A stretch of DNA of 64,000 nt, taken from positions 109,277-173,276 of the IMG/VR virus record IMGVR_UViG_3300012286_000299, one strand, 5' to 3'. The notes under the pieces were generated by a model. The model saw only the letters and a list, made by a program, of their open reading frames with translations. It had not been told where the DNA came from and ran no database searches. This DNA comes from a virus. Taxonomy: Duplodnaviria > Heunggongvirae > Uroviricota > Caudoviricetes. The position numbers were made by a program, and so were the translations under genes. Below, piece after piece: positions 16,076-42,925 of this stretch (position 1 is its first letter; each line of letters opens with the position of its first letter).

Positions 16076-16076
16076 T

Positions 16077-17012
16077 ATGAAACATTTAGAAGATACCCCA
16101 TGGTGGATATGTGATGAAGGTGATTTTAATTTTTGTGCTTATGTTGATACAGATTCTAATTATTTCAATGCTGAGCCATTATTGAAACATTTATATCCTG
16201 ATTTTGATGAAAAAACTGATCAAGAAAAAGATGATTTATTAGAGAAAGTAGCTCTTAAGTACCAAGATATTATAACTGAACACTATGATATACTTGCTAA
16301 AGAAGCCTTTAATATTAGTACACACCGATTAGAAATGAAAACTGAGTGTGTTATTCGTTCTGCTTATTTTAGAGCTACAAGACGTTATGCTCAATGGATT
16401 ACTAAAAAAGAAGGTATAGCAAAAGAGGAATTAGACATTAAAGGATTAGAATTTAAAAAAGCTAATTTCCCTAAATATTTTGGAAAGTTTTATCAAGAAA
16501 TTCTTGAATTAATCATTAAAGGTACTTCACAGAGTATTATAGATAAGAAAATTCATGAATTTAGACAAGAAGCAACCTCAACTGATATAGATTTTACCCT
16601 TATAGGTAACCCAACATCAGTTAAAACATTAAATGAGTATATAGCTTCCCACCCTAAACCAGGTAAAATATTATCTGAAATAAAATCAGGAGCTGGTGCA
16701 TCAGTTAAAGCTTCTATCAAACATAATGATTTATTACGATTTTGGCAATTAGATTCAAAACATAGTCAAATAGTACAAGGTGATAAAGTAAAATGGGTTT
16801 ATTTAAAAAATAACCCTTATAATATAGAAGCTATTGCATTTTTAGAATTTGATATGGCTGATAAAATCAAAGACTTCATTAATGAATATATTGATAGAGG
16901 GAAAAGTTTTGAAACTATATTACAGAAAAAACTACAAGGCTTCTATGATGACCTTGAATGGATGTTACCACCAGCAAATCCACTAATACATAAATTTTTT
17001 ACATTCAACTAA
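16077..17012 (+). CDS. family B DNA polymerase, C-terminal part (motif C + thumb)
   Basis: CAYVDTDS (motif C, YxDTDS) 20 aa from the start; spacing to motif B fits an uninterrupted PolB. Confidence 0.85.
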   Translation: MKHLEDTPWWICDEGDFNFCAYVDTDSNYFNAEPLLKHLYPDFDEKTDQEKDDLLEKVALKYQDIITEHYDILAKEAFNISTHRLEMKTECVIRSAYFRATRRYAQWITKKEGIAKEELDIKGLEFKKANFPKYFGKFYQEILELIIKGTSQSIIDKKIHEFRQEATSTDIDFTLIGNPTSVKTLNEYIASHPKPGKILSEIKSGAGASVKASIKHNDLLRFWQLDSKHSQIVQGDKVKWVYLKNNPYNIEAIAFLEFDMADKIKDFINEYIDRGKSFETILQKKLQGFYDDLEWMLPPANPLIHKFFTFN

Positions 17013-20531: not shown

Positions 20532-20538
20532 TAAATTT

Positions 20539-20558
20539 GGAGTCTCGAAAGAGACTCC
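20539..20558 (+). terminator. hairpin ggagtctc-gaaa-gagactcc (possible terminator/attenuator, weak T-run)
   Basis: 8-bp perfect stem with a GAAA tetraloop between groEL and the clamp loader. Confidence 0.35.
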
Positions 20559-20573
20559 ATATATTAAAAAGTT

Positions 20574-22139: not shown

Positions 22140-22420
22140 GTGATTCAATAAAAAAATTTGAAGAAATGAATGATAGAGAAATGCATTTCACCATTGATGA
22201 TGATGAAAATAATATGGTAATACATCCAAATCACTATGGAGGTAAAGATAACCCTTATGAGGCTATCAAAGTTATAGAAGCTTGGGAAGTAGGATTTAAT
22301 TTAGGTAATACACTTAAATATATTTCCAGAGCAGGTAAAAAAGATAATATAATCCAGGATTTAGAAAAAGCTCTATTTTATTTAGATAGAGAAATCCAAA
22401 ATAGAAAAAAACTTGGCTAA
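22136..22420 (+). CDS. DUF3310-like phage protein
   Basis: NPYEAIKVIEAW...TLKYISRAGKK...KALFYL pattern common in phage DUF3310 proteins. Confidence 0.4.
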   Translation: MSDSIKKFEEMNDREMHFTIDDDENNMVIHPNHYGGKDNPYEAIKVIEAWEVGFNLGNTLKYISRAGKKDNIIQDLEKALFYLDREIQNRKKLG

Positions 22421-23384
22421 ACAAATCCCACCAGTATTAAAGGATCTTAAGAAGGTAATAGTTCCACCCGTCAACTACGAAGTTAATAAGTATATATCGT
22501 ATTCTCAATTAAGTATGTTTTCTAACTGCCCTTTTCAATGGGGTTTGAGATATAGAGATGGCTTTAAAGTATTTGAACCAAGTATACACGCGGTATTTGG
22601 AACAGCATTACACTTAACTCTACAAAACTATTTAACAGTATTGTATGAAGAAAGTGGTGTAGCAGCAGATCATTTAGATATTGAGACAGATTTTAAAAAT
22701 GCTTTAAAAAACGAATACAAACTTACTTTAGAAAAGAATAATAATGTTCATTTTTCTACAGCTGCGGAATTAGCAGAATTTTGTGATGATGGGATTCAAA
22801 TCCTTAATTTCATTAGAGAAAAACGAGCTGCTTACTTTTCTAAAAAAGGTTGGTATTTAGTAGGTTGTGAGTTACCAATTGTTTTGAACCCTATTAAAAC
22901 TCTAGAAAAAGTCTTTATAACAGGTTTTATTGATGTAGTGTTTTACCATGAACCAACTAATACAATTAAGATTCTTGATATAAAGACTTCAACTAGAGGT
23001 TGGGGTGACAAAGAAAAGAAAGATGATGTTAAAGTGACTCAAATACTTCTATACAAAAAGTTCTTTGCAGAACAATATGATTTCCCAATGGATAACATTG
23101 AGGTAGAATTCTTTATTACAAGAAGAAAAGTATATGAAGGTGGAGATTTCCCACAAAAACGAATTCAAGAATTTAAACCTGCTGCAGGTAAAATAAAATT
23201 GAATAAATCTACACAATTATTAGAAGGGTTTTTAAAACAAGTATTTGATTCTGAAGGGAATTACAATATGGCCGAATTAGAGAAAAAACCAAGTAAACGT
23301 AATTGTCATTTTTGTCCTTACAAAAATAATCAAGATTTATGTGATAAAAACGAGGATATTAAAAAAACATTCAAATTTTATTAG
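22413..23384 (+). CDS. PD-(D/E)XK exonuclease with Cas4/RecB-like Fe-S cysteines
   Basis: GFIDVVFY...ILDIKTS (D...D/ExK); N-terminal Cys (SNCPFQW) plus C-terminal CHFCPY...C cluster. Confidence 0.7.
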   Translation: MAKQIPPVLKDLKKVIVPPVNYEVNKYISYSQLSMFSNCPFQWGLRYRDGFKVFEPSIHAVFGTALHLTLQNYLTVLYEESGVAADHLDIETDFKNALKNEYKLTLEKNNNVHFSTAAELAEFCDDGIQILNFIREKRAAYFSKKGWYLVGCELPIVLNPIKTLEKVFITGFIDVVFYHEPTNTIKILDIKTSTRGWGDKEKKDDVKVTQILLYKKFFAEQYDFPMDNIEVEFFITRRKVYEGGDFPQKRIQEFKPAAGKIKLNKSTQLLEGFLKQVFDSEGNYNMAELEKKPSKRNCHFCPYKNNQDLCDKNEDIKKTFKFY

Positions 23385-23425: not shown

Positions 23426-23614
23426 ATGTCACAAAATCAACAATTAACAAGTGTGAAGGTAGACAAAGATATCTTTGAAGCTTTCAAAATTGAGACTATT
23501 AAAACTAAGTTCTCATTACAAAAATTAGCAGATAGGTGTATGCATCTATACTTAACAGACCCTGAATTTCAAAAAATGGTTCACGATCATATGAATTTGG
23601 AATTAGAAAAATAA
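23426..23614 (+). CDS. small hypothetical protein
   Basis: ORF. Confidence 0.4.
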   Translation: MSQNQQLTSVKVDKDIFEAFKIETIKTKFSLQKLADRCMHLYLTDPEFQKMVHDHMNLELEK

Positions 23615-23619: not shown

Positions 23620-25044
23620 ATGAAAGAAGGTTATATACCAAAAGAACAAAGAAAAAAGATATTATTCATTTGTGATGATATCAGAATGCACTCGGGTGTA
23701 GCTACAATGGCTCGAGAAATAGTTTTAGGAACCTCTCACCATTATAACTGGGTAATAATTGGAGCAGCTATTGATCATCCTGAATCAGGACAAAGATTAG
23801 ACTTATCTGATGCTACTAACAAAGAAACTGGAAATGAGGATACAAATGTAATTATCTATCCTAGTAATGGATATGGAAGTGCTGATTTAATCAGATATAT
23901 GATAAAGAATGAAAAACCTGATGGGTTAATGTTCTTTACGGATCCAAGATATTATGACTGGTTATTTGCTATCGAAAATGAAGTAAGAAAACAAATACCA
24001 ATGATTTACTTAAACATTTGGGATGATTTACCTGCTCCACTTTATAATAGAGCATTCTATGAATCATGTGATGCTTTATTAGCTATCTCAAAACAAACCA
24101 AAAACATTAATGAAATGGTTTTAGGTAAAAAAGCAGATGGTAAAGTTATCTCTTATGTACCTCATGGTATTAATGAAAAAATGTTTTATCCTATAGAAGA
24201 TAAAACACAGTTACAAGAAACTAAGAAAAAATTATTTGGAGATAAAGAATTTGATTTTGTATTATTCTTTAATTCACGTAATATTAGGAGAAAATGTACT
24301 AGTGATTTATTAGCAGCTCATAAAATGTTTTTAGATTCTTTACCTAAAGAAAAAGCTGATAAAATTGCCTTAGTATTACATACACAAGTTGTAGATAATA
24401 ATGGTACTGATTTAGATGCTGTTAGAACTTTATTATTTGGTAAGAAATCAAACATATTCTTTTCAGATCAAAGAATTGATACTGCTGAGTTAAATAGAAT
24501 TTATAATATATCTGATGCTGTAGTATTACCTTCTTCAAATGAAGGATGGGGATTAGCAATAACTGAAGCTATGATGGCTGGTAAAATGATAATCGCTAAT
24601 GTAACTGGAGGTATGCAAGATCAAATGCGTTTTGAGGATGAAAATGGTAAATGGATTGAATTAACACCTGAATTTCCTTCTAATCATTTTGGTACTTATA
24701 AAAAATGTGGTAAGTGGGCTGTACCTGTATTCCCTAATAACATGTCATTAGTAGGTTCACCTATAACTCCTTATATTTGGGATGATAGATTAGATTTTAG
24801 AGACTTAGCAAATGCTATTAATCAGGTTTATGAATTATCTCCTGAAGAAAGAGTAGAAAATGGTAAAGCAGCTAGAGAATGGGTAACTTCTGATGAATCT
24901 GGTATGAGTGCTAGAATGATGTGCAATAATGTAATTAAAGATATTGATTTAACTTTAGAAACATTTAAACCTAAAAAATCATTTGATCTACTTTTAGTAG
25001 AAGATTTGGAACCTCTAGAATTAGTTCATAAATTAACGTATTAA
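23620..25044 (+). CDS. GT-B glycosyltransferase (GT4-like)
   Basis: E-x7-E motif EGWGLAITE; overall GT4 architecture. Confidence 0.65.
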   Translation: MKEGYIPKEQRKKILFICDDIRMHSGVATMAREIVLGTSHHYNWVIIGAAIDHPESGQRLDLSDATNKETGNEDTNVIIYPSNGYGSADLIRYMIKNEKPDGLMFFTDPRYYDWLFAIENEVRKQIPMIYLNIWDDLPAPLYNRAFYESCDALLAISKQTKNINEMVLGKKADGKVISYVPHGINEKMFYPIEDKTQLQETKKKLFGDKEFDFVLFFNSRNIRRKCTSDLLAAHKMFLDSLPKEKADKIALVLHTQVVDNNGTDLDAVRTLLFGKKSNIFFSDQRIDTAELNRIYNISDAVVLPSSNEGWGLAITEAMMAGKMIIANVTGGMQDQMRFEDENGKWIELTPEFPSNHFGTYKKCGKWAVPVFPNNMSLVGSPITPYIWDDRLDFRDLANAINQVYELSPEERVENGKAAREWVTSDESGMSARMMCNNVIKDIDLTLETFKPKKSFDLLLVEDLEPLELVHKLTY

Positions 25045-25102
25045 TTAGATAAGATAAGTTTTCCATTGGGTACATATATTTATTATCATAAATACGTACC
25101 TA

Positions 25103-25774
25103 ATGGATTATCAAAGAATTTACAACCAATTAATAGAAAAAGCTCAAAGTAGAACCTTAGAAGGTTATATTGAAAAACATCATATTATCCCTAAATGTCT
25201 AGGAGGAAGTAATGATAAAGAAAATTTAGTAGAATTAACAGCAAGAGAACATTTTTTATGTCATATGTTACTTTGTGAGATTTATCCTAAAGAAAATAAA
25301 CTAAAACATGCCTTATTTTTAATGTCTATTGGTAAACAAAGGATTAAAGAAAAACATTATGTTGTTGGTTCTAGAGTTTATGAAAGGCTTAAAACTGAAT
25401 ATTCTCAATTTTTAACAGGTAAAAAACAATCACAAGAAACTAAAGATAAAAAGAGTAAAGCTATGTTAGGAATTTGGGAAGATAAAACCCAAGAAGAAAA
25501 ATCTAAGATAGGACAAAAAAGATGGGACACTAGAATCAAAAATGGGACTACTAATATTAAAAGTATTAATAGAAGTAAATCATTAAAGGGTAGAGAAATT
25601 ACATGGGACCGAGGAGTTAATAAAATCATTATTCAATATGATAAACAAAATAACTTTATTAAAGAATGGTCTAGTATATCAGAAGCTCAAAGGCAAATAG
25701 GAGGGGATATTAAAGGTGCTTTAGCAGGGAGGCAAAAAACTGCTGCAGGTTTTATTTGGAAATACAAAAACTAG
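25103..25774 (+). CDS. HNH homing endonuclease with NUMOD-type C-terminal DNA-binding motif
   Basis: HHIIPKCLGGSNDKENLVELTAREH (HNH); C-terminal SISEAQRQIGGDIKGALAGRQKTAAGFIWKY. Confidence 0.75.
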   Translation: MDYQRIYNQLIEKAQSRTLEGYIEKHHIIPKCLGGSNDKENLVELTAREHFLCHMLLCEIYPKENKLKHALFLMSIGKQRIKEKHYVVGSRVYERLKTEYSQFLTGKKQSQETKDKKSKAMLGIWEDKTQEEKSKIGQKRWDTRIKNGTTNIKSINRSKSLKGREITWDRGVNKIIIQYDKQNNFIKEWSSISEAQRQIGGDIKGALAGRQKTAAGFIWKYKN

Positions 25775-25797
25775 TTATTATATTAAAATAAAAAAAA

Positions 25798-27105
25798 ATG
25801 AAAAATACATTTGTGATATCATGTCCCATAGATTGTTATGCAGGGTATGGAGCACGTTCACGTGATTTAGTTAAAGCGTTAATTAATTTAGATAAATACG
25901 ATGTTAAAATAATGCCTCAACGTTGGGGAAATACACCTTGGAGTTTTATTGAAGATCATCAAGAAGAATGGGGATTTTTACAACCACATATTTTAACAGG
26001 TCAGTTAACTCAACAACCTGATATTTGGGCTCAAATAACAGTACCTAATGAATTTCAAGCTATTGGAAAATATAATATTGGAATAACAGCGGGTATCGAA
26101 ACTACTATTTGTGCTCCTCAATGGATTGAGGGTATGAATAGAATGAGTTTAAATTTAGTTTCATCAGAACATGCTAAAAAAGTATTTCAAGATTCTAAAT
26201 TTCAAAAACATGATGAAAGGACTAAACAAGTTGTTGGTGTAATAGAATTAACATCTCCTATTGAAGTATTATTTGAAGGAGTAGATATTGTTAAATACTT
26301 TGCATCTACATTAACTCCTACTTCCGAAATAAAGCAAGCCTTAGATAATGTAAAAGAAGAGTTTGCATTTTTATTTGTGGGTCATTGGCTTCAAGGTGAT
26401 TGGGGTCAAGATAGAAAAGATGTAGGAGGGTTAGTTAGAGTATTCTTAGAAGCCTTTAAAAATAAATCTAAAAAACCTGCTCTTATATTAAAAACAATGT
26501 CAGGTCCAACTAGTATTATAGATAGAGATAATATCTTGAAAAAAATAGACGTTATAAGACAATCTATGCCTACTAAAAACTTACCTAATATTTACTTATT
26601 TCATGGTGAAATATCAGACGATGAAATGAATCAATTATATAACCATTCTAAAGTAAAAGCAATGGTTAGTTTTACTAAAGGAGAAGGATTTGGTAGACCT
26701 TTACTTGAATTTACTCAAACTAAAAAACCAGTTATTGCTTCAAATTGGAGTGGACAATTGGATTTCTTAAACCCTGAATTTACTTCATTAATACCTGGTA
26801 CTTTAACTAATATTCATCCATCTGCTCAAGTTAAGGATATGTTAATTGATGGTTCACAGTGGTTTACAGTAGATTATGGATTTGCTGGTGGTATATTAAG
26901 AGATTATTTTGAAAATTATAAAAAATATCAAGATAATGGTAAACGTTTAGCACATTATTGTAAAACTAATTTCTCATTTGAGAAAATGCAAGAAAAATTA
27001 GATACTATATTAACTGCTAATATACCTGAGTTTCCAAAGCAAGTGCAATTGAAATTACCTCAATTAAAAAAGGTTGAGTTACCTAAATTAAAAAAAGTAG
27101 AATAA
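25798..27105 (+). CDS. GT-B glycosyltransferase (GT4-like)
   Basis: E-x7-E motif EGFGRPLLE; C-terminal ELPKLKK repeats. Confidence 0.6.
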   Translation: MKNTFVISCPIDCYAGYGARSRDLVKALINLDKYDVKIMPQRWGNTPWSFIEDHQEEWGFLQPHILTGQLTQQPDIWAQITVPNEFQAIGKYNIGITAGIETTICAPQWIEGMNRMSLNLVSSEHAKKVFQDSKFQKHDERTKQVVGVIELTSPIEVLFEGVDIVKYFASTLTPTSEIKQALDNVKEEFAFLFVGHWLQGDWGQDRKDVGGLVRVFLEAFKNKSKKPALILKTMSGPTSIIDRDNILKKIDVIRQSMPTKNLPNIYLFHGEISDDEMNQLYNHSKVKAMVSFTKGEGFGRPLLEFTQTKKPVIASNWSGQLDFLNPEFTSLIPGTLTNIHPSAQVKDMLIDGSQWFTVDYGFAGGILRDYFENYKKYQDNGKRLAHYCKTNFSFEKMQEKLDTILTANIPEFPKQVQLKLPQLKKVELPKLKKVE

Positions 27106-27106
27106 A

Positions 27107-27559
27107 ATGAAAGATAAATTATCTATATGCCCACGTTGCGGGAGTGATGCTTGTTATGTCACTCCTGTAAATGAAGTAAAAAACAACTATTTCTGTTTTG
27201 GATGTGGTTTTCAAACAAATGACCTAATGAAAGAAGGTGAATTTGATTTTGAAACATATGAAGAACCATTACCTGAACTATATAAAGATCTTAAAAACAC
27301 TGATTCAGAAAAACGTGTTTGGTATCCAATTACTATTAATATTCAGGATAAAGGAACGGTATTTGCCAATGGAAAAACCAAAGATAATTGGACATGGGCA
27401 GGAGTAAAGGCCGTTGAAGTAAGCGAAGAAGAAAAAGGTAAATTTAAAATACCTGGTACTGAAGATTACTATACTCATAAAACTGATATTAAATCTTTAA
27501 AGAATTATCCACAAGATGATTTTATTGAAGCCCTAGATTATATAGGTTTTTATAATTAA
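27107..27559 (+). CDS. zinc-ribbon protein
   Basis: CPRCGSDAC ... CFGCG. Confidence 0.45.
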   Translation: MKDKLSICPRCGSDACYVTPVNEVKNNYFCFGCGFQTNDLMKEGEFDFETYEEPLPELYKDLKNTDSEKRVWYPITINIQDKGTVFANGKTKDNWTWAGVKAVEVSEEEKGKFKIPGTEDYYTHKTDIKSLKNYPQDDFIEALDYIGFYN

Positions 27560-27562
27560 TAT

Positions 27563-28180
27563 ATGAGAATAAGTTATGCAATTCCTGTTTGTAATGAACA
27601 TGAAGAATTAATGAGATTACTAAGCATCCTCATCACCAATAAAAGAGATGAGGATGAAATAGTAGTTCAATGTGATCAGGGTAATACTACACCTGAAGTA
27701 TATAAAGTATTAGACCAATTTTTTGGTAGAATAAGTGTTATAGAATTTCCATTAAAAGGTAATTTTGCGGCTTTTAAAAATAATTTAAAGAAGCATTGTA
27801 CTGGAGAATGGATTTTTCAAATTGATGCTGATGAATACGTAACTATTGAATTTTTACAAAGTTTACATTTAATTTTACAAGATAATCCTACAACAGAAGT
27901 ATTTTTGCTTCCTAGAATTAATACTGTAGAAGGATTAACTCAAGAGCATATTAATAAATGGAGATGGAATGTAAATGAGAAAGGATGGGTTAACTTCCCA
28001 GATTTACAACCTCGTATACTTCAAAATTCACCTAAAATTAATTGGGGTAATAAAGTACATGAAGTACTAATGGGTCATAGTACATGGTCTACTTTACCAT
28101 TAGAAGATGATTATTGTCTGTATCATCCAAAACATATTGAAAGACAAGAACGACAAAATAATTTATACGATTTATTATGA
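27563..28180 (+). CDS. putative GT-A (GT2-like) glycosyltransferase
   Basis: ISYAIPVCNE N-terminus resembles the GT2 IIPxYN start; DADE acidic motif. Confidence 0.4.
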   Translation: MRISYAIPVCNEHEELMRLLSILITNKRDEDEIVVQCDQGNTTPEVYKVLDQFFGRISVIEFPLKGNFAAFKNNLKKHCTGEWIFQIDADEYVTIEFLQSLHLILQDNPTTEVFLLPRINTVEGLTQEHINKWRWNVNEKGWVNFPDLQPRILQNSPKINWGNKVHEVLMGHSTWSTLPLEDDYCLYHPKHIERQERQNNLYDLL

Positions 28181-29529
28181 TAAAATTTATAATATTTGAT
28201 TTAGATGGTGTTTTAGTAGAAGCCAAAAATATTCATTTTGAAGCTTTAAATGAAGCTTTAGGAAAAAAATATGAAATATCTTGGAATGAACATTTAAGTA
28301 AATATGATGGTTTAAAAACAAATCAAAAACTTGAAATGTTAACTCAAGATAAAGGGTTACCTGTTGCATTATATAAACAAGTTTGGGATGAAAAACAACG
28401 ATTAACTTTACATAAGTTAAAAAACTTACAACCTGATACTCAATTAATGGTTTGTATGGATTCATTAGTACAACAAGGTTATAAATTAGCAGTATGTTCA
28501 AATAGTATACGTAAAACTGTATTAACAGTGTTATCTAAATTAAATATAATTGAAAATTTTGATTTAATATTATCTAATGAAGACGTAAAGAATAGTAAAC
28601 CTCATCCTGAGATTTATTGGAAAGCCATATCACAAATGGGTTTTTTACCTGAGGAAACACTTATTGTTGAGGATTCACCTTATGGTTTACTAGCCGCAAG
28701 CAGGAGTAAAGCTTCTGTAATGAGAGTTGGATCCCCAAAAGATATTTCGTATAATAACATTTATAAATACTTAAACCAAGAAAAAATGAATTTAACACCT
28801 AAATGGAAAGATGACAAATTAAATGTTTTAATTCCTATGGCTGGAGCTGGTTCACGTTTTGAACAAGCAGGTTATACTTTTCCTAAACCTCTAATAGAAG
28901 TAAAAGGTAAACCAATGATCCAAGTTGTAGTTGAAAACTTAAACTTAGAAGCAAATTATATTTATGTAGTACAAAAAGCTCATAGACAAAAATATAACTT
29001 AGATACATTATTAAATCTAATTACACCAGGATGTAAAATTGTAGAGACTGATGGGTTAACTGAAGGAGCAGCATGTACTGCTTTATTAGCTAAAGAATTT
29101 ATAGACAACAATGCTCCATTGTTTTTTGCTAATTCAGATCAATTTGTAGAATGGGACTCAAATGAATTTATGTATAAAATGAATGAAACTAACGCTGATG
29201 GTGGTATTGTTTCATTTACTGCTACTCACCCTAAATGGTCATTTGCTAAAGTTGATGAAAACGGATTAGTAACTAAAGTTGCTGAGAAAAATCCTATTTC
29301 AGATATAGCAACTGTAGGATATTACTACTGGAAACATGGTTCAGATTTTGTTAAATATGCTGAGCAAATGATTGAAAAAAATATAAGAGTAAATAATGAA
29401 TTCTATGTATGTCCTGTATTTAATCAAGCAATTGAAGATTGTAAACAAATCCGAACTTTTAACACTAATGGAATGTGGGGTCTTGGAACACCTGAAGATT
29501 TAAATTATTATTTAGAACATTATGTATAA
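28177..29529 (+). CDS. bifunctional HAD-family phosphatase / sugar-1-phosphate nucleotidyltransferase
   Basis: N-terminal FDLDGVLVE (DxDGxL HAD motif I); central LIPMAGAGSRFEQAGYTFPKPLIEV (GxGxR nucleotidyltransferase loop). Confidence 0.7.
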   Translation: MIKFIIFDLDGVLVEAKNIHFEALNEALGKKYEISWNEHLSKYDGLKTNQKLEMLTQDKGLPVALYKQVWDEKQRLTLHKLKNLQPDTQLMVCMDSLVQQGYKLAVCSNSIRKTVLTVLSKLNIIENFDLILSNEDVKNSKPHPEIYWKAISQMGFLPEETLIVEDSPYGLLAASRSKASVMRVGSPKDISYNNIYKYLNQEKMNLTPKWKDDKLNVLIPMAGAGSRFEQAGYTFPKPLIEVKGKPMIQVVVENLNLEANYIYVVQKAHRQKYNLDTLLNLITPGCKIVETDGLTEGAACTALLAKEFIDNNAPLFFANSDQFVEWDSNEFMYKMNETNADGGIVSFTATHPKWSFAKVDENGLVTKVAEKNPISDIATVGYYYWKHGSDFVKYAEQMIEKNIRVNNEFYVCPVFNQAIEDCKQIRTFNTNGMWGLGTPEDLNYYLEHYV

Positions 29530-30322
29530 ATTACATATAGTAATACCTATTGGAGTAAGTTCACCTGGGACTCCAGTACCTGAATTTTTATTAAATGGTA
29601 TAGAAAGTTTAAAAGAACAAACATTAGATGATATTCTAATTACAGTAGCAGCTGACGAAAATATATCAGATGAATGTAAACAAGTATTAAAAGATACAGG
29701 TGTAAATGTTGAATGGTTTCCTGAGTATTCTTATTTTACTAAAGAAGGAATTTGGGGTAAAATATTTAAATGTTGGGAAAATTATGATTCACAATATGTT
29801 TCATTTCTTCATTATGATGATCTTTGGGAAAGTAATAAAGCTTTAAATCAAATTAATTTTATTGAAAAAAACAATTTAGATGGTTGTTGGTCCCAAGTAT
29901 ATCTTATAAATGATAATAATGAAATTACTAGTGGAGATAGTATGCAAATTAGTAAATTATCTGCTAATTCTGTAGGATATTTAATTCCATGGATGTGTCA
30001 TTCTACTATTATAAAAAAAGATACCATATTAAACTGTGGAATATTAGAATATAGAGAAAAATGGAATTGTGATTTTGAATGGTTATATACTGTATTTTTA
30101 CATAAAATTAAAAACCTAATGAAATGTGAGGATGCTATATTTTTATGGAGACAACATGAAAGTCAAGTATCACACGCTCAAGGGATTAATATGAAAGAAG
30201 ATAATAATCATGTTAAAGAACAAAGAGAACTTGTAGGTTATTCGTTTGATGAAACCATGGAAGATTCTCGTTATGTGATGGAAAATATAAATTTAGAGGA
30301 GATTAAAAAACTATACAAATAA
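29522..30322 (+). CDS. putative GT2-like glycosyltransferase
   Basis: IVIPIG...ESLKEQTLDDILITVAADEN resembles the GT2 N-terminal signature. Confidence 0.4.
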   Translation: MYKLHIVIPIGVSSPGTPVPEFLLNGIESLKEQTLDDILITVAADENISDECKQVLKDTGVNVEWFPEYSYFTKEGIWGKIFKCWENYDSQYVSFLHYDDLWESNKALNQINFIEKNNLDGCWSQVYLINDNNEITSGDSMQISKLSANSVGYLIPWMCHSTIIKKDTILNCGILEYREKWNCDFEWLYTVFLHKIKNLMKCEDAIFLWRQHESQVSHAQGINMKEDNNHVKEQRELVGYSFDETMEDSRYVMENINLEEIKKLYK

Positions 30323-30324
30323 AA

Positions 30325-31011
30325 ATGGAAAATTTAAATCAATATGTAAATATGCTTAATGAAGCATACAAAATGGGAACAAATAACCACCCAGAACACA
30401 ATTCAAATCCTAATTATTGGGGCTTACTTTTAAATAGTATTAAATCAAATCCTGAAAACTGGGATGGGAAAAAAGCACTTGATTTTGGGTGTGGTAAAGG
30501 AAGAAATGTAACTAATATGTTATCTTTAGCTAATTTTGAAAGAGTAGATGGTATAGATGTTAGTGAAGATAATGTTAGATACTGTAAAGAAATATACACT
30601 AATCAACCTTCTGACTTTTATAAAAATTCAGGGGAAGATTTATCTGATTTAAATGATAATGAATATGATTTTGTAATGAGTACTATTGTATTCCAACATA
30701 TTTGTGTACATGAATTAAGATATAAATTAAAAGAAGAAATATATAGAGTATTAAAACCTGGAGGAGAATTTTCATTCCAAATGGGATTTGGACCTATAGA
30801 TTGGAGTGGTAATACAAAACAGAGAACTTACTTTGAAAATGGGTATAACGCTGAAAATTCTAATGGAAGTAATGATGTTCGAGTATCAGACCCACAAGAT
30901 TTAGTTAATGATTTAAGTAAAATTGGTTTTAAAGATATTACTTATTCTGTTGAAGAGCCTTGGGAAGATGGAGGTCATCCTAATTGGATTTATGTAAAAT
31001 GTTTTAAATAA
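30325..31011 (+). CDS. SAM-dependent methyltransferase
   Basis: Motif I ALDFGCGKGRN; motif post-I DGIDVSE; class I MTase length. Confidence 0.6.
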   Translation: MENLNQYVNMLNEAYKMGTNNHPEHNSNPNYWGLLLNSIKSNPENWDGKKALDFGCGKGRNVTNMLSLANFERVDGIDVSEDNVRYCKEIYTNQPSDFYKNSGEDLSDLNDNEYDFVMSTIVFQHICVHELRYKLKEEIYRVLKPGGEFSFQMGFGPIDWSGNTKQRTYFENGYNAENSNGSNDVRVSDPQDLVNDLSKIGFKDITYSVEEPWEDGGHPNWIYVKCFK

Positions 31012-31871
31012 TGAACACTTGTATATTTACAACTCATACCACTTTAAATTTAAAACATGCTGAATACAGTTTGAAGTCCCTATTGGGGCTTCAAAGTGTT
31101 GATGTGATATGGGATAATTTTATAATTTATAATACTCATGATCATGAATTGAGTAACTATGATTTAGTAAATTTAATTAAACAATTTGATGTTAAGAATT
31201 ATATTAAAAACCTTTTAATATTTCCTTATGATTCTGAAATAAATAAAAAAAATTTATTACAAGATATAAGAAATTGGTATGATATAGGATTATCATTAGA
31301 ATTACAAAACACACCAGGTAAAATGTTATGGTTAAAATCAGACTATTGTGTTTCTAATAATTTCAACCAAATATTCTTAGAACATAGTCTTAATAATTGT
31401 ATGTGGTCATTACCTACATTAGGGGCTAAACAAAAAATTAGTTATGACACTATATTAACTAAACTTAATTTACCTGAGTTTACTACATCAGATTTTGAAA
31501 CATATTATAGGGGAGGAGATAATCCTAATAATGAATTATCTAATGAAGAAATATCACCTAATGGAGAAATGGATTATCATCCATCTATAAATTATGTTTC
31601 TCATAATTACGTTCATGATTTTAACTTACATGTTATATCTAATGATACTTTAGAATTAGGTAGAGAATTAGCTTATCATCCTCAAGTATTCGATATGAAT
31701 TCAACATGGGGTGGTCCCCATAATTTATTTTATGGTTTGAAACAAAATGGAGTGTATTTTAGTGGTGAATATAGAGCTTATGGTATCCATATGTTTCATG
31801 AAATAATTTCTGAAAATAGGTTGGAAGACAGAGGAGATGATCGTAAATTACATATAGGAGAAAAATATTAA
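31011..31871 (+). CDS. hypothetical protein in the glycosylation island
   Basis: ORF coupled by ATGA. Confidence 0.45.
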   Translation: MNTCIFTTHTTLNLKHAEYSLKSLLGLQSVDVIWDNFIIYNTHDHELSNYDLVNLIKQFDVKNYIKNLLIFPYDSEINKKNLLQDIRNWYDIGLSLELQNTPGKMLWLKSDYCVSNNFNQIFLEHSLNNCMWSLPTLGAKQKISYDTILTKLNLPEFTTSDFETYYRGGDNPNNELSNEEISPNGEMDYHPSINYVSHNYVHDFNLHVISNDTLELGRELAYHPQVFDMNSTWGGPHNLFYGLKQNGVYFSGEYRAYGIHMFHEIISENRLEDRGDDRKLHIGEKY

Positions 31872-31877
31872 AAAATT

Positions 31878-32312
31878 ATGATACTAATTTCACATAGAGG
31901 GAATACAAACGGGAAGTTTGAATCCTATGAAAATGAACCTAATTACATTGATAAAGCCATATCAGAAGGATATGATGTTGAAATTGATATTTGGTGTATT
32001 GAAGGTCTTTTATTATTAGGACATGATAAACCACAATACGGTATAACACAACATTGGTTAAATGAACGACATGATAAATTATGGATACATTGTAAAAATG
32101 TAGAAGCTGTAGAATGGTTTAACATGATTAAAGGGTTTAATTATTTTTGGCATGAAGAAGATACAGTAACATTGACATCACATGGATTTATTTGGGCTTA
32201 CCCAGGTAAACAACCTATAAAAAATTCAATAGCAGTATTACCTGAAAAATACAATGATAATTTAAATCAATGTATAGGAATATGCTCCGATTATTTAAAA
32301 AATTATAAATAA
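31878..32312 (+). CDS. glycerophosphodiester-phosphodiesterase-like (GDPD-fold) protein
   Basis: ISHRGN...ENT...EIDIW pattern (HR...E...E/D) of the GDPD N-terminus. Confidence 0.4.
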   Translation: MILISHRGNTNGKFESYENEPNYIDKAISEGYDVEIDIWCIEGLLLLGHDKPQYGITQHWLNERHDKLWIHCKNVEAVEWFNMIKGFNYFWHEEDTVTLTSHGFIWAYPGKQPIKNSIAVLPEKYNDNLNQCIGICSDYLKNYK

Positions 32313-32908
32313 TGAAAAACAGAGTTATTTTAGGAGGACCTTTAAGAGGAAATATAAATAACTGGAATAAATTACAAGAATTATTCTCATTATTATCAGC
32401 TGAGGTATACGTGTCATCTTATACAAAATGGGAAAATGTTCCTTTTGAATATCATTATACTCAAACAAAACCCTTTTTAGATTTAACATGTTTTTCTCAA
32501 GGACAACATGTTCACAATGCTAGATATAAAGAACAATGGGAATCATTATATACTTGTTATTCTACCTTTTCTCCATCATTTTCAGAAGATGATATAATCT
32601 TTAAATTAAGAAATGATATATGTTTAGAATCTTCATTAAATATATTATTAGAACTCCAAATAAAAGATAATTACATACACGCTCCCAATACTGAATTTCA
32701 TATGAATTGTCCATTTGATGTGAATGTAGTATGTAATGACCAATTTTATATTTCTAAAAAACCAGTAGCTGATAAGATCTTTAATCTTCCTTATAATTTT
32801 GTATTTGATTCTAATAAAGATTTAGGTATAGAAGCTATTTTACGGGATTATATGTCACAACAAAATATCAATTTAGAAACATTTGAATTTAAATACTCCC
32901 GAGTATGA
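32312..32908 (+). CDS. putative sugar-modifying protein, paralog of 32905-33618
   Basis: Shared N-terminal pattern with the next ORF. Confidence 0.45.
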   Translation: MKNRVILGGPLRGNINNWNKLQELFSLLSAEVYVSSYTKWENVPFEYHYTQTKPFLDLTCFSQGQHVHNARYKEQWESLYTCYSTFSPSFSEDDIIFKLRNDICLESSLNILLELQIKDNYIHAPNTEFHMNCPFDVNVVCNDQFYISKKPVADKIFNLPYNFVFDSNKDLGIEAILRDYMSQQNINLETFEFKYSRV

Positions 32909-33618
32909 AGTTAGCAATTTGCATAAGTGGTCAACCTAGAAATTTTGAACAAGGTTATGAAAGTTTAAAAACTTATTTTTTAGACAAATATGATTGTGAT
33001 ATTTACTTTCATACTTGGAAAATTGATAGTTTTGAATCAACTAATTTTGGTTTTGGTAATCATCAATATAGTTTTGATAGAAATGATTATTATAGTTTAA
33101 ACTTTTTATATCAACCCAAAAATCACATTTTAGAAAATCCTATTATATTTGATAGTAGTGGTTATAAATGTCCAATTTGGAGACAACCACTAAATAATAC
33201 ATTAAGTATGTTTTATTCTATTTATAGATCTTTTCAATTAATTGAAGGGAATTATGATTATATTATAAGAACTAGATTTGATGTAAATTACTCTAAATTT
33301 AATTTGGAGTTTCCAGAAAAAGGTATTATATTACCAGAATGGAATACTGATATTAGAGTTAAATCTAGGGGTTATTATGATGTATTTGCTTTGGGTAAAC
33401 CCGAAGATATGAAAATATATTCACAAGTATTTTCAAATATTATATCTTATGTAACTAATGATGAAGATTTTCTTAACTTCTTAACAGGAGGTTGGCCTGG
33501 ACAAGACTCACCATTAAGAAATGAGTATTTATTAAAATGGCATTTATTAAAAAATAATATAAAAGTAAAAGAATTACCTACATTAGAAATAAAAGCTGAT
33601 GTTGGTTTAATAAGATAA
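32905..33618 (+). CDS. putative sugar-modifying protein (paralog pair)
   Basis: AICISGQPRNFEQGYESL...DIYFHTW similar to 32312 ORF ILGGPLRGNINNW...EVYVSSYTKW. Confidence 0.45.
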   Translation: MKLAICISGQPRNFEQGYESLKTYFLDKYDCDIYFHTWKIDSFESTNFGFGNHQYSFDRNDYYSLNFLYQPKNHILENPIIFDSSGYKCPIWRQPLNNTLSMFYSIYRSFQLIEGNYDYIIRTRFDVNYSKFNLEFPEKGIILPEWNTDIRVKSRGYYDVFALGKPEDMKIYSQVFSNIISYVTNDEDFLNFLTGGWPGQDSPLRNEYLLKWHLLKNNIKVKELPTLEIKADVGLIR

Positions 33619-33619
33619 T

Positions 33620-34534
33620 ATGAAAGGAGTCATAACTATATTTGCATTACCCCAAGAATTAGAAGATTTATCTTTAACATTATATAACCTAAAAAGAAAT
33701 TCAGTTTATTTAGACCCACAAGACAAATATTCAGTAGACATAACATTATGTTTATCAGATGAATTAACAGATTGGAACAGTTCTATATTACCTAAAGATT
33801 ATATTGAACAACGAACTATTGAATTATGTAAAAAGTTTTTAGATTGGTGTGAATATGATTTAAATATTGAAAAAGGAGATAATATATTAGGATGTGTTTC
33901 TCAAAGACGATATAGTTTAAATAAACATCAAGATGCTGATTTTTTTATTTGGTTAGATTGTGATTTTATATTTAAAGATTCAACATTATCCTATATGGCT
34001 ACTGCATATCAAAATATAAAAGATATAGGAACTAATAATTTTATTCTAACCCCTCAATTTGTAAGACAATGGGACACTTCATGGGATGTATTAGTTAATG
34101 AAAAATTTATAAATCACCCTATATGTTACCACGAATCAGCAGATGTTTATATTGATACCCTTCCACAAAATGATGAAATACAAGTTAAACAAATCAATAA
34201 CATTAAATTTGCAGGTGGGTGGTTCACATTAATAACAGGTAAATTATTACAAGAAATAACTATCCCTGAATCTTTAGGCCATTATGGTTTAGAAGATAAT
34301 TTTGTTATTGAGTGTTCTAAAATACTACAACATAAAGGTGTAAATATATCTCAATTTATATTAGACGGACTTGTTATAGGTGAAAGTTATACTCATAGAC
34401 CAAATCAAACTATTAAAAATTTTATTACAAGTAAAAATAGAAAACAAGAATTTACTCAAATAGCACAAGATAATTTTCCAATTGAATTAAATAAATTTTA
34501 TGAAAGAAGTAACAGTAGTATTAACAGCCTGTAA
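33620..34534 (+). CDS. putative GT-A glycosyltransferase (DxD)
   Basis: FFIWLDCDFIF DxD-like motif. Confidence 0.35.
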   Translation: MKGVITIFALPQELEDLSLTLYNLKRNSVYLDPQDKYSVDITLCLSDELTDWNSSILPKDYIEQRTIELCKKFLDWCEYDLNIEKGDNILGCVSQRRYSLNKHQDADFFIWLDCDFIFKDSTLSYMATAYQNIKDIGTNNFILTPQFVRQWDTSWDVLVNEKFINHPICYHESADVYIDTLPQNDEIQVKQINNIKFAGGWFTLITGKLLQEITIPESLGHYGLEDNFVIECSKILQHKGVNISQFILDGLVIGESYTHRPNQTIKNFITSKNRKQEFTQIAQDNFPIELNKFYERSNSSINSL

Positions 34535-35189
34535 TAGGGCAGATTTATTAGAACGAACTTTAGATAGTTTTTTCGAAATGAACACTTATCCTCTTAAACG
34601 TTTTATTATCATTGATGATGGGATGAATTTTGGATGTAATGATTTTGTTAAAGATAAATATGATTTTCCTATTGAATTAATTTATAATGATCCTAAATTA
34701 TATCAAATTAAATCTATTGATTATGCCTATTCTTTAGTTGATACTGAATATATATTTCATATGGAAGAGGATTGGTTATTTCTTAAATCAGGTTTTATTG
34801 AAGATTCAATAGAAATATTAGAACAAGATCCTAACATAGTTCAAGTATGGTTAAGAGGTTTAGATGATAAAACTTTAAATCACCCTTATTCTCCTGATTT
34901 ATATTCTAGTGGTGATAAAAAATTAGTAATGAATTTACCTAATGGAGTATGGGGTGGAATTAGTTTTAACCCGGGATTAAATAGATTAAGTGATTGGAAA
35001 TCATTTGCTAATGGTTATGATGGATGTACTAGATTAACTCCTCCAGAAAACAGTGGTGGTGTAACACTTGAATGTGATATATCATATGAAAACATTCAAC
35101 GAGGTAAAATCACTATGAGATTTGTAGAATCATACATAGAACATATAGGATGGGATAGACATATAATACACGGAATAAATGGAGAATAA
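34500..35189 (+). CDS. GT2 glycosyltransferase
   Basis: VTVVLTACNRADLLERTLDSF...FIIIDDG matches the GT2 N-terminal signature. Confidence 0.65.
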   Translation: MKEVTVVLTACNRADLLERTLDSFFEMNTYPLKRFIIIDDGMNFGCNDFVKDKYDFPIELIYNDPKLYQIKSIDYAYSLVDTEYIFHMEEDWLFLKSGFIEDSIEILEQDPNIVQVWLRGLDDKTLNHPYSPDLYSSGDKKLVMNLPNGVWGGISFNPGLNRLSDWKSFANGYDGCTRLTPPENSGGVTLECDISYENIQRGKITMRFVESYIEHIGWDRHIIHGINGE

Positions 35190-36384
35190 ATTTAATATAA
35201 GCAATATATCAGTTGTTGTACCAAGTTACAATAATTTAGAATACCTTAAATCTTTATATAAATCAGTTAGACAAGTTTCATCTGAAATTGAATTAATAAT
35301 GTTTAGTGATGGTTCAACTGATGGGACTAAAGAATGGTTAGAACAATTAAATGATTCTAATTCAATAATAAAATGTTATAATGAAAGAAAGGGACATACC
35401 TTATTATATGATGAAGGATTTTTATTAGCAACTAAAGAAATCATAGGTATATTACATGCTGATATGATTGTAAATAAGAATTTCTTTAATTCTATTATAA
35501 AACATATTGCTACTAATAATATAGTTTGTGGAACGTGTATAGAACCACCTTTACACCCACCTGGAGGAGAAAAACATATATTAGATCTTGGAATGTATCC
35601 TAATGAATTCAATGAGGATAAATTTAATAGTTTTTGTAATGATAAAGATGTAAATCAAATATCCGAAGGTATATTTGCTCCTTGGTTTTTACTTAAAGAT
35701 GATTATATATCAAAAATAGGTAAACATGATATTATATATGCTCCTTATGGATACGAAGATAGTGATCTATTTACTAGAATGGCTTTAGCTAATTTTAATT
35801 TTATACAAAGTAGAGATGCTTTTGTATATCATTTTACTCAAAGAGGTCATAAATGGACTAAAGGAGTAGGGATAGAAAATAATGATTATCAGTATCAAAT
35901 GGGTAAAACTCGAAAAGAATATATTAGAAAGTTTGGGAGTGATCCTAAATTTGATTTTAATCATAAACCTACCCCTTCACCTAAATATAATATTGCTTAT
36001 GTAGTTAAACATGCAAACATGCAAATAGTAGAAGTATTAGAACCTTGGTGTGATAGACTTTATATTGAAGACAGTATGCAAGTGATTACAGATTCTTATA
36101 GAGAAAAAGAACAACTAAATACCAAGTTTGATTTATCAAAAAGAGTTCTTACATTGGAGTATAATGATCCAAAAGGAGAGAATGACATCGTAGTAGAATT
36201 TGATGCAAAACAATTTACAAATGCCGATTTTGCTTTCTTACAAAGACTTCCTGAGATTATAAAAGATAATGGAGATATAGGTGAATTTGAATTTGATATA
36301 TTTAAAATAACTATCAATTCAATGACTGAATACCAAAATGATTTAATTTATTTTGATAAAAATAATATTTATATTAAAACATAA
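35179..36384 (+). CDS. GT2 glycosyltransferase
   Basis: ISVVVPSYNNLEYLKSL...IMFSDGSTDGT GT2 signature. Confidence 0.7.
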   Translation: MENKFNISNISVVVPSYNNLEYLKSLYKSVRQVSSEIELIMFSDGSTDGTKEWLEQLNDSNSIIKCYNERKGHTLLYDEGFLLATKEIIGILHADMIVNKNFFNSIIKHIATNNIVCGTCIEPPLHPPGGEKHILDLGMYPNEFNEDKFNSFCNDKDVNQISEGIFAPWFLLKDDYISKIGKHDIIYAPYGYEDSDLFTRMALANFNFIQSRDAFVYHFTQRGHKWTKGVGIENNDYQYQMGKTRKEYIRKFGSDPKFDFNHKPTPSPKYNIAYVVKHANMQIVEVLEPWCDRLYIEDSMQVITDSYREKEQLNTKFDLSKRVLTLEYNDPKGENDIVVEFDAKQFTNADFAFLQRLPEIIKDNGDIGEFEFDIFKITINSMTEYQNDLIYFDKNNIYIKT

Positions 36385-39429: not shown

Positions 39430-39507
39430 ACTAAAATTTACATATAAAAATTTGGCTCCCTAAGGGAGCCTTTGTATATTTAACATTATAAATTTAAAAC
39501 AATAAAA

Positions 39508-42328: not shown

Positions 42329-42925
42329 ATGAAATTCAAATCACAACAAGCTTTTAATTATCACGAATTAAAAGGGTTATATCCTTACATTAAAGGTACA
42401 AAAGGTTTTATAGCAGGAGGATGCTTCAAAGACATATTTGCAGGTAACAAAGCTAGAGACATTGATGTTTTCTTTGAAAATGAAAGCGACTATAAAAAGG
42501 CTGTAAAACTTTATAAAACCAAAAATAATTTTAAGAAAATATACTCAAACGACAACTGTACAGGGTATAGAGATCTTAAAAACAATGTTGGAGTTGAATT
42601 AGTTAAATCAATATTTGGAACACCTGAAGCGGTGTTGGAGCAATTCGATTTTACTATTGTAAAAGCAGCTTACTATAACCCACCTACAGACGAGCAAGAA
42701 ATTCAATTCATATTTCACCCTGACTTTTTTGAGCATTTGCTTCTTAAAAGATTAGTTTTAGATGATGCTATACCTAGAGCTGTAGCAACACTTAACAGAA
42801 GTTGGAAATATGCTGCTTATGGATTTGGGTTGTGTAGAGAAAGTAAAGTTAAATTATCAAATGAGATTATCAACAAAGGAGTTGTTGATGACATTAATGG
42901 AGATTTATATTTTGGATATGACTAA
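42329..42925 (+). CDS. Pol-beta-superfamily nucleotidyltransferase, paralog of the CCA-adding-enzyme head domain
   Basis: AGGCFKDIFAGNKARDIDVFF parallels GGCVRDRLLGVKTKDIDFVF of ORF 43443 (GGxxxDxxxGxxxxDxD). Confidence 0.5.
   Translation: MKFKSQQAFNYHELKGLYPYIKGTKGFIAGGCFKDIFAGNKARDIDVFFENESDYKKAVKLYKTKNNFKKIYSNDNCTGYRDLKNNVGVELVKSIFGTPEAVLEQFDFTIVKAAYYNPPTDEQEIQFIFHPDFFEHLLLKRLVLDDAIPRAVATLNRSWKYAAYGFGLCRESKVKLSNEIINKGVVDDINGDLYFGYD

Follow-up and report, generated by a model that had tools for sequence, protein, structure and literature searches.

In many large aquatic phages, 5-8% of the genome consists of islands rich in glycosyltransferase (GT) genes, and to our knowledge none of them has a demonstrated product. 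Giant viruses glycosylate their own capsids and fibrils with cytoplasmic enzymes. Mycobacteriophages have glycans on their capsid and tail-tube subunits (summarised in PMC12619734), and polymorphic clusters of GT and nucleoside diphosphate (NDP)-sugar genes have been described in large aquatic phages since the first cyanomyophage genomes (reviewed in PMC7824862). Here we analyse such an island in a 64,000-nt stretch of a Caudoviricetes virus (IMG/VR record IMGVR_UViG_3300012286_000299, positions 109,277 to 173,276; in the following 'the window'), where it spans positions 23620-36384 of the + strand. The island consists of a conserved frame of GT genes enclosing an exchangeable cassette, and its soluble proteins most likely form an assembly line for a complex heteroglycan, variable between strains and made in the cytoplasm of the infected cell. 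Parts of this are already on record: the corresponding block of Flavobacterium phage immuto is annotated in GenBank, and the fusion protein of the cassette, a putative sugar-activating enzyme, is annotated in cyanophage records. What we add is the definition of a conserved frame and a swappable middle in one widespread lineage, literature-based evidence against DNA glycosylation by the core, and the recognition that the fusion, a minimal GDPD-fold protein (mini-GDPD) and a DUF7796 protein form a very widespread module with a link to giant viruses.

The 17 ORFs of the island are packed in an operon-like manner, as their junctions range from -35 to +58 nt (35-nt overlap to 58-nt gap), in a window with a GC content of ~29% and practically every gene on the + strand. 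All ORF coordinates given in a first-pass annotation of this DNA coincide with mechanically called ORFs, and the contiguous, one-strand glycosylation island proposed there is borne out by Pfam matches above the curated cut-offs for GT4, GT2, Methyltransf_11, HAD_2 and NTP_transferase. The Pfam gathering thresholds are 26.4 bits for Glycos_transf_1 (PF00534), 23.3 bits for Glycos_transf_2 (PF00535) and 21.4 bits for HNH. Glycos_transf_1, the C-terminal Rossmann domain of GT4 enzymes, is matched by ORFs 23620 (48.2 bits) and 25798 (34.9 bits), in agreement with the two GT4-like GT-B enzymes expected, and Glycos_transf_2 by ORFs 27563 (44.5 bits), 29522 (31.5 bits), 34500 (46.8 bits) and 35179 (68.3 bits). 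The anticipated set of GT-A/GT2-like enzymes thus comprises these four and a DUF7796 protein of GT-A fold with its divergent paralogue. ORF 30325 matches Methyltransf_11 with 66.6 bits, and ORF 28177 matches HAD_2 with 110.4 bits and NTP_transferase with 49.1 bits, supporting the proposal that the phage may activate its own sugar. The island also lies inside the replication region as had been suggested, with PolB, GroES/EL, a clamp loader and a PD-(D/E)XK nuclease upstream and a CCA-adding enzyme and DNA ligase downstream. To map the architecture, the window proteins were placed on 80 IMG/VR loci retrieved with the fusion protein, to which the locus counts refer. The features, named by their first nucleotide in the text, are as follows.

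22413-23384, + strand: PD-(D/E)XK nuclease (PDDEXK_1 E 2e-19); conserved left neighbour, probably outside the pathway
23426-23614, + strand: 62-aa small protein, possible ribbon-helix-helix DNA binder (sole family match weak, Omega_Repress E 0.077)
23620-25044, + strand: GT4a, GT-B glycosyltransferase, 474 aa (Glycos_transf_1 E 1e-12); left frame
25103-25774, + strand: free-standing HNH/NUMOD1-like homing endonuclease (HNH match sub-threshold, NUMOD1 match weak)
25798-27105, + strand: GT4b, GT-B glycosyltransferase, 435 aa (Glycos_transf_1 E 1.4e-8); left frame
27107-27559, + strand: zinc-ribbon protein, 150 aa (conserved Cys pairs in 15 aligned homologues; Pfam Zn-ribbon matches weak); frame
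27563-28180, + strand: GT2 (GT-A), 205 aa (Glycos_transf_2 E 2e-11); closes the left frame
28177-29529, + strand: fusion of HAD and sugar-1-phosphate nucleotidyltransferase, 450 aa (HAD_2 E 1e-31, NTP_transferase E 7e-13)
29522-30322, + strand: GT2, 266 aa (Glycos_transf_2 E 2e-7); variable cassette, 1 of the 80 loci
30325-31011, + strand: class I S-adenosylmethionine-dependent methyltransferase, probably a sugar O- or N-methylase (Methyltransf_11 E 3e-18); cassette, 6-7 of the 80 loci
31011-31871, + strand: 286-aa protein without Pfam, PHROG or NCBIfam match; cassette, 8 loci with 81-86% identity
31878-32312, + strand: mini-GDPD, 144 aa; near-universal partner of the fusion
32312-32908, + strand: divergent paralogue of the DUF7796 GT-A-like protein, 198 aa; profile-level link to the 32905 family
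32905-33618, + strand: DUF7796 protein, GT-A nucleotide-sugar transferase fold, 237 aa; frequent partner of the fusion
33620-34534, + strand: 304-aa protein with a conserved DxD-like motif and no family or PDB match; 20 loci, in relatives often directly 5' of the fusion
34500-35189, + strand: GT2, 229 aa (Glycos_transf_2 E 4e-12); cassette, 7 loci
35179-36384, + strand: GT2 with an extra C-terminal domain, 401 aa (Glycos_transf_2 E 1e-18); right frame, 17 loci

Mapping revealed a constant frame on both sides of the island. Its left part comprises the nuclease, the 62-aa ORF, GT4a, GT4b, the zinc-ribbon protein and the GT2 of ORF 27563, and its right part the 401-aa GT2. The nuclease is syntenic in 28 IMG/VR loci, and the 62-aa protein, whose 16 aligned homologues share a strand-helix-helix pattern, lies directly 5' of GT4a in all relatives examined, immuto included. 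The frame proteins are 40-47% identical to those of Microcystis phage Mel-JY01, as compared to 34-37% for PolB and the clamp loader, so that by sequence identity the frame, conserved as well as the replication genes, is no ordinary accessory region. An interruption of the island by an HNH homing endonuclease had been proposed for ORF 25103, which indeed carries an HH..N..H motif and is absent from the site in most relatives, but its Pfam score of 19.6 bits remains under the threshold. As GT4a immediately adjoins GT4b in most relatives (loci L003 and L004 among them), we regard this ORF as an intruding homing endonuclease. ORF 22413 was also considered as a T4 gp47-like exonuclease, at a site analogous to that of T4 α-gt, and this candidate was ruled out by its identity as a PD-(D/E)XK nuclease.

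The middle of the island is exchanged between relatives. The distance from one frame GT2 to the other varies from 5.0 to 12.5 kb, the 80 loci contain 415 protein clusters, and different cassettes are found even where the fusion protein is 95-96% identical to that of the window. Recurrent cassette families are NAD-dependent epimerase/dehydratases (37 loci) and DegT aminotransferases (26 loci), and also GT10-like proteins, FkbM methyltransferases, WavE-like proteins, GNAT acetyltransferases and a PF11397 (GT60-type) transferase. In immuto the middle is entirely different, with two WecE-type aminotransferases, an acetyltransferase and an epimerase, and in the window it holds the fusion, the mini-GDPD, two GT2, two DUF7796-type proteins, the methyltransferase and two unassigned proteins. 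The base composition shifts between 31000 and 35000 (GC ~0.255 versus 0.28-0.30 in the flanks, AT skew ~0.04 versus 0.10-0.15); this shift coincides with the exchangeable cassette and is consistent with exchange. Conserved flanks around an exchangeable NDP-sugar and GT cassette are the arrangement expected of a Wzx/Wzy- or ABC-dependent locus for surface polysaccharide. That the gene content is unusual for a lytic-phage replication block, as the first-pass annotation had it, is overstated, since the same arrangement is a conserved trait of the lineage and comparable polymorphic clusters occur in cyano- and pelagimyophages (PMC7824862, PMC7029224, PMC12801897).

The lineage itself was recognised at the protein level, as a megablast search of 50,697 phage records with the island sequence gave no match. 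Synteny with immuto extends over a block that includes GroES/EL, DUF3310 and HNH neighbours, with identities of 88% for a MazG-like protein, 53% for GroEL, 73% for the DUF3310 protein, 42% for the nuclease, 45% for the small ORF, 60% for GT4a (gp181), 57% for GT4b (gp180), 47% for the zinc-ribbon protein (gp179), 54% for GT2 27563 (gp178), 48.5% for GT2 35179 (gp169) and 43% for HNH 37536. Mel-JY01 is syntenic too, in the order PolB, clamp loader, nuclease, GT4a, GT4b and GT-A (nuclease 40%, GT4a ~40%, GT4b 47% and GT2 27563 41% identical), and GT4a is 27% identical to a protein of Rhodothermus phage RM378. PolB is at most 34% identical to that of any cultured phage. The immuto group consists of 155-190 kb phages with a regular polymerase of family A, B or C (PMC11348598), and since this polymerase is variable within the group, a PolB-bearing relative fits. 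In the window the family B polymerase is split into ORFs 14085-15812 and 16077-17012 (both + strand), which are separated by an 87-aa ORF (15813-16076) and closely preceded by a His-Me finger endonuclease-like ORF (13540-14085); in Mel-JY01 PolB is a single gene. With 88% identity to immuto gp208, the MazG-like pyrophosphohydrolase (12502-13026, + strand) is much more similar than the other shared genes (40-60%), which suggests either recent exchange or very strong constraint.

The fusion protein of ORF 28177 is the presumed supplier of NDP-sugar in the cassette, with the HAD domain in residues 1-~200 and the sugar-1-phosphate nucleotidyltransferase in residues ~215-450. A 450-aa fusion of a HAD phosphatase to a GxGxR nucleotidyltransferase had been proposed and likened to GmhB and HddC of NDP-heptose synthesis; the architecture stands, but the analogy does not, as the HAD domain is of the capped β-phosphoglucomutase (β-PGM)/YqaB type. 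Its best NCBIfam matches are PGMB-YQAB-SF and bPGM, with no GmhB model among the 25 best listed, and its PDB matches are β-PGMs and capped sugar phosphatases rather than capless GmhB or histidinol-phosphatase enzymes, from which we conclude that the domain is not of the GmhB type. The β-PGM motifs are present, D8, D10, H20, K73 (equivalent to Lys76), K141, E165 and D166 being invariant in 11 diverse fusions, and the domain is 29% identical to Lactococcus lactis β-PGM over 198 aa; the β-PGM sequence aligned and the roles of its residues are those that we presume to be correct. No Arg aligns with Arg49 of the β-PGM cap, where the fusions have an invariant D44-G45-L46-x-T48, and the NCBIfam bPGM model (TIGR01990) scores 91 bits against a cut-off of 189.4 bits, too low for assignment as an equivalog. 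Because the Arg49 equivalent is missing and the TIGR01990 score lies far under the cut-off, the HAD domain may act as a mutase on a different sugar phosphate or else as a sugar phosphatase.

The C-terminal half carries the GxGxR signature and finds its best PDB match in an uncharacterised NDP-sugar pyrophosphorylase of Vibrio cholerae (4evw, E 7e-17). The HddC structures 5xhw and 6jq8 match only marginally and only over residues 216-335 (E 8e-5 to 2e-4). Pfam and NCBIfam searches of the 17 island ORFs detected neither a GmhA-type SIS isomerase nor a sugar kinase. A β-PGM-type HAD domain and an island without heptose isomerase and kinase leave the NDP-heptose reading unsupported, and no search yielded the identity of the activated sugar.

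Two partners accompany the fusion. The mini-GDPD adjoins it directly in 37 of 67 loci and lies at most 3 kb away in 63 of them. No variation is seen at H6, R7, E18, N19, E35, D37 and H49 in sets of 21 and 30 homologues, and these residues align to GDPD 7e0v, so that the catalytic residues of the N-terminal half (His-Arg, Glu-Asn, Glu-x-Asp and His-Asp) are in place. With 144 aa, however, the protein falls short of a complete (β/α)8 barrel (~220 aa or more), and it has no Pfam GDPD match. The second partner, a DUF7796-like gene, is the commonest transferase neighbour of the fusion, also in cyanophage S-CAM9, and the best viral matches of the DUF7796 fold include Catovirus, chlorovirus MT325, Tupanvirus, Fadolivirus and CroV as well as cyanophages. 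ORF 32312 is probably a paralogue of ORF 32905 as judged by profile comparison (hhalign 74% probability, E 3e-5, 177 columns; BLASTP not significant). All-against-all hhalign among the families linked neither ORF 31011 nor ORF 33620 to any other (33620 versus DUF7796: 1% probability), and searches of PDB sequences with profiles of the 32905 and 33620 families gave no match.

This module is spread widely and ranks with the commonest auxiliary modules of aquatic phages. Relatives of the fusion number 421 in IMG/VR and its protein clusters at least 8000, and it is found in the cultured cyanophages S-CAM9, S-PRM1, S-8S55, DSL-LC03 and B3/B23 with 55-60% identity; the mini-GDPD, with 3355 protein clusters overall, is found in the same phages with 44-51% identity. 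Contigs filed under cellular genomes that carry the fusion are mostly phage contigs binned into metagenome-assembled (MAG) or single-amplified genomes (SAG) of Prochlorococcus, Flavobacteriaceae and Patescibacteria. Only L097 (Myxococcales) and L098 (Cellvibrionales) looked truly bacterial, and in both the HAD protein and the nucleotidyltransferase are separate genes in operons with WecG/TagA, GT4 and GT2.

Among the binned contigs, L083-L091 (MAG/SAG contigs assigned to Prochlorococcus, Flavobacteriaceae, Micrarchaeota and other taxa) encode both fusion and mini-GDPD, and L092 (NHDW01000006.1, 305 kb, binned as Methylococcaceae TMED69) carries both together with the nuclease-GT4-GT4 frame; L083-L092 seem to be phage contigs that ended up in cellular genomes by mis-binning or co-sorting. 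L088 (DHWA01000006.1, 'Patescibacteria group bacterium UBA5194', GC 21.5%) encodes at 10001-11344 a fusion homologue with 19 in-frame TGA codons, which stand at conserved glycine positions (DxD*VL, PMA*AGSRF). Reading TGA as sense (table 4 as proxy) extends its longest ORF from 145 to 725 aa, and the glycine positions point to a UGA=Gly code (genetic code 25).

For the acceptor of the glycan, the best reading of these gene contents, which we hold tentatively, is cytoplasmic glycosylation of phage (virion) proteins. The HAD domain would deliver a sugar-1-phosphate, acting as a mutase on a common sugar-6-phosphate or as a phosphatase on a bisphosphate, and the fused nucleotidyltransferase would turn it into an NDP-sugar. 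The frame transferases would then start a glycan on a phage-supplied acceptor, most likely one or several virion proteins, and the cassette enzymes would extend and methylate it, resulting in a glycan-coated particle whose outer sugars would differ among close relatives. Virus-encoded soluble transferases, sugar activation and a DUF7796 fold shared with giant viruses together correspond to the gene content of virion glycosylation.

The pathway appears to be soluble throughout. The 19-residue hydropathy maximum is at most 1.38 in every island protein, under the transmembrane threshold, and no flippase-, polymerase- or initiating-transferase-like (polytopic) family recurs in the 1397 ORFs of the 80 related loci. 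These data also bear on remodelling of the host surface, in which soluble phage GTs would work from the cytoplasmic side of the membrane on undecaprenyl pyrophosphate (Und-PP)-linked sugars or on the core of lipopolysaccharide (LPS), and the flippase and ligase of the host would export the product. We consider such remodelling a serious rival, somewhat less likely than glycosylation of virion proteins; the altered surface of the infected cell would then block superinfection or adsorption of progeny to debris. It is disfavoured by the lack of an initiating phosphoglycosyl transferase, flippase, polymerase, ABC exporter or ligase in the island and the 80 related loci. O-antigen glycosyltransferases, on the other hand, are normally soluble or peripheral, so that missing transmembrane segments are compatible with a host-surface role, and the phage enzymes could use lipid carriers and exporters of the host.

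Conservation across hosts argues in the other direction. The frame GTs are conserved like replication proteins between phages of Bacteroidota and Cyanobacteria, although the envelope glycans of these hosts differ, and the 40-47% identity to Mel-JY01 across host phyla is an argument for a phage-intrinsic acceptor. Similarly, members of the DUF7796 transferase family also occur in giant viruses, whose eukaryotic hosts lack LPS, again arguing for an acceptor that the phage supplies. Moreover, we know of no experimental precedent for remodelling of the host surface by a strictly lytic phage. It is nevertheless the standing hypothesis for the polymorphic GT clusters of cyano- and pelagimyophages (PMC7824862, PMC7029224, PMC12801897), a position among probable early genes would suit an early function, and the variable cassettes could track the diversity of host glycans.

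Several points weigh against virion proteins as acceptor. None of the phages in this lineage has a demonstrated glycoprotein, and no structural gene, thus no acceptor to examine, lies within the window. The island is embedded in replication and nucleotide-metabolism genes that are probably early or middle, and does not lie beside capsid or tail genes as in actinophages. The bacterial homologues of both halves of the fusion belong to cell-surface polysaccharide operons (WecG/TagA, GT4, GT2), which speaks for the host surface, and similar cyanophage clusters have been interpreted in print as diversifying the host O-antigen or capsule (PMC7824862, PMC7029224). A universal host acceptor such as Und-PP-GlcNAc could be an alternative cause of the conservation of the frame across phyla, the giant-virus argument is one by association, and neither the activated sugar nor the role of the mini-GDPD is derivable from the searches.

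The mini-GDPD and weak NCBIfam matches of GT4a to MshA, BshA and monoglucosyl-diacylglycerol synthase also raise the question of a soluble or lipid glycoconjugate apart from virion, DNA and host polysaccharide, such as a glycolipid, a compatible-solute-like glycoside or a secondary metabolite. Here the GDPD-fold protein, whose fold implies glycerophosphodiester chemistry, would supply glycerol-3-phosphate or a related alcohol phosphate; HAD phosphatases complete pathways of the glucosylglycerol and mannosylglycerate type. We judge this improbable. The small-molecule and lipid matches of GT4a are generic and far under the family cut-offs, a dozen transferases and modifying enzymes in exchangeable cassettes are unlike the pattern of a single small metabolite, and no lipid-handling or export gene was found in the hydropathy scan or among the recurrent families of the relatives.

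DNA, like virion proteins and the host surface, was suggested as a target in the first-pass annotation, and as a target of the island it is very improbable. In this scenario the transferases would put sugars on a modified base, as in glucosylated 5-hydroxymethylcytosine (hmC) of T4 or arabinosyl-5-hydroxycytosine of RB69 and DLP3, to evade restriction. The known DNA arabinosyltransferases, GT-B enzymes of GT4-like type, occur together with a HAD phosphatase and a nucleotidyltransferase (PMC13326640), the island is surrounded by DNA-metabolism genes and adjoins a nuclease, and the phage encodes the 7-deazaguanine precursor enzymes FolE, QueD and QueE as well as a MazG-like pyrophosphatase. Synthases for hmC, 5-hydroxymethyluracil (hmU) or 5-hydroxycytosine (5hoC) are recognised by N177D, a change of L143 or D169N in a ThyA homologue (PMC13326640). 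The only ThyA homologue within the window keeps L143, C146, D169 and N177 and thus appears to be an ordinary thymidylate synthase. Virion DNA of immuto, as analysed by liquid chromatography with UV and mass spectrometric detection, contains normal dA, dC and dT, with fdPreQ1 replacing dG, and no glycosylated nucleoside is reported (PMC10516641). Immuto shares the GT frame, and it was through this relative that DNA glycosylation was tested. An ordinary ThyA and immuto DNA that is normal apart from the deazaguanine make DNA glycosylation unlikely and disfavour the earlier suggestion of sugar-hypermodified DNA. Furthermore, bases of the preQ1 type offer no hydroxyl for glycosylation, and up to about ten transferases, together with the aminotransferases, epimerases and methyltransferases of relatives, are far more than known DNA modifications, with their one to three sugars, would require. 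The immuto result speaks for the frame; DNA as target of the fusion cassette is without support in the gene content and appears unlikely.

The genes behind these considerations lie upstream of the island. Thymidylate synthase (6274-7509, + strand) owes its 411 aa to four insertions relative to Escherichia coli ThyA and retains all catalytic and specificity residues, and genes for QueD (PTPS), a QueE-like radical SAM protein and FolE lie at 9406-11499 (+ strand), with no DpdA, QueC or QueF seen in the window.

Scans for promoters and terminators gave no information on expression timing of the island or on the host. The T4 late-promoter motif TATAAATA had 17 matches versus 21.7 expected, a Bacteroidetes-type TTTG-N-TAnnTTTG pattern had 8 versus 6.3 expected, and counts of a sigma-70 and terminator scan did not exceed the shuffled expectation. 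The first strong terminator-like site 3' of the island is a perfect, GC-rich hairpin (GGCTCCC-TAA-GGGAGCC, 39454-39470) with a T-rich tail, and a further terminator-like site (20538-20559) follows GroEL. Downstream of the island a nucleotidyltransferase-like ORF (42329-42925) precedes the gene for the CCA-adding tRNA nucleotidyltransferase (43443-44180, + strand), and DNA ligase (45669-46790) follows it. A tRNA-like gene (55298-55367, + strand) scores 44.8 bits with the Rfam tRNA model and is reported by ARAGORN as 'tRNA-???' with a two-base anticodon, that is, an abnormal anticodon loop. At the left end of the window, ORF 47-1111 (+ strand, 354 aa), labelled 'polymerase' in PHROG 23333, matches Pfam PARP with E 1e-16. 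By this match it is a phage-encoded PARP-like ADP-ribosyltransferase; the PARP catalytic domain ruled out divPolA1 of the immuto group as an alternative candidate.

Taken further, glycosylation of virion proteins would make the island a virion 'serotype locus' resembling those for O-antigens, where the GT4-GT4-GT2 frame places a lineage-wide core glycan on particle proteins that is capped by fast-exchanged cassettes and fed by a kinase-free route of β-PGM-type mutase and nucleotidyltransferase together with a half-size GDPD-fold enzyme. In this specific form we offer the idea as a speculation more likely to fail than the general reading. If the particles do carry such a coat, particle glycosylation would extend from actinophages to phages of Gram-negative aquatic bacteria, and phages would have their own version of serotype variation. 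HAD-nucleotidyltransferase and mini-GDPD are of interest in themselves as an abundant enzyme pair, with thousands of protein clusters in flavobacterial, cyanobacterial and other phages, one of which appears to read UGA as glycine.

With bacterial O-antigen and capsule loci the island shares conserved flanks around exchangeable NDP-sugar, GT and modifying genes, and homologues of the fusion halves occur in such operons, but it lacks an initiating transferase, Wzx/Wzy and an ABC exporter and is encoded by a lytic-type phage. The arabinosyl-5-hydroxycytosine cluster of RB69 and DLP3 (PMC13326640) likewise combines a GT4-like GT-B enzyme with HAD and nucleotidyltransferase proteins among DNA-metabolism genes. 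That system, however, depends on ThyA D169N, on an arabinose-5-phosphate isomerase and on a nucleotidyltransferase with a fused kinase domain. The island is accompanied by none of these, and the HAD protein of that system resembles GmhB, whereas the HAD domain of the island resembles β-PGM; tblastn with the fusion against the 50,697 phage records gave no RB69-type match.

The 'LPS/cell-wall modification' clusters of T4-like cyanophages and pelagimyophages (P-SSM2, S-SM2, S-CAM9, S-SCSM2R) are closer, since the fusion, the mini-GDPD and a DUF7796-like gene occur inside the GT clusters of S-CAM9, S-PRM1, S-8S55, DSL-LC03 and B3/B23 as they do here, and polymorphism of such clusters between related phages has been described (PMC7824862). 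The cyanophage clusters differ in lying in a hyperplastic region near tRNA, hli and psbA and in lacking the GT4-GT4-zinc-ribbon-GT2 frame, and those of the S-SM2 type contain additional isomerases, kinases, a transketolase and an aldolase, with isomerase and kinase genes accompanying a related nucleotidyltransferase.

Virion glycosylation, as in the O-glycans of mycobacteriophage capsids and tail tubes and the capsid and fibril glycans of chloroviruses and mimivirus, resembles the island in relying on soluble GT-A and GT-B enzymes, own sugar activation and methylation without membrane export, and GT4b has weak C-terminal matches to actinophage glycosyltransferases. Actinophage genes, in contrast, lie beside structural genes, whereas the island is known from genes alone and belongs to a phage of Gram-negative aquatic hosts, for which we know of no precedent of virion glycosylation. 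The closest counterparts are the blocks of immuto and Mel-JY01, which, like the island, are known from genes alone and follow the same order of nuclease, small ORF, GT4, GT4, zinc-ribbon protein, GT2, variable middle and 400-aa GT2, with identities of 42-60% to immuto. Immuto differs from the window phage in its amino-sugar middle without fusion and mini-GDPD and in a family A polymerase instead of the split family B enzyme, and as a cultured relative that shares the frame it is the system in which the acceptor could be found directly.

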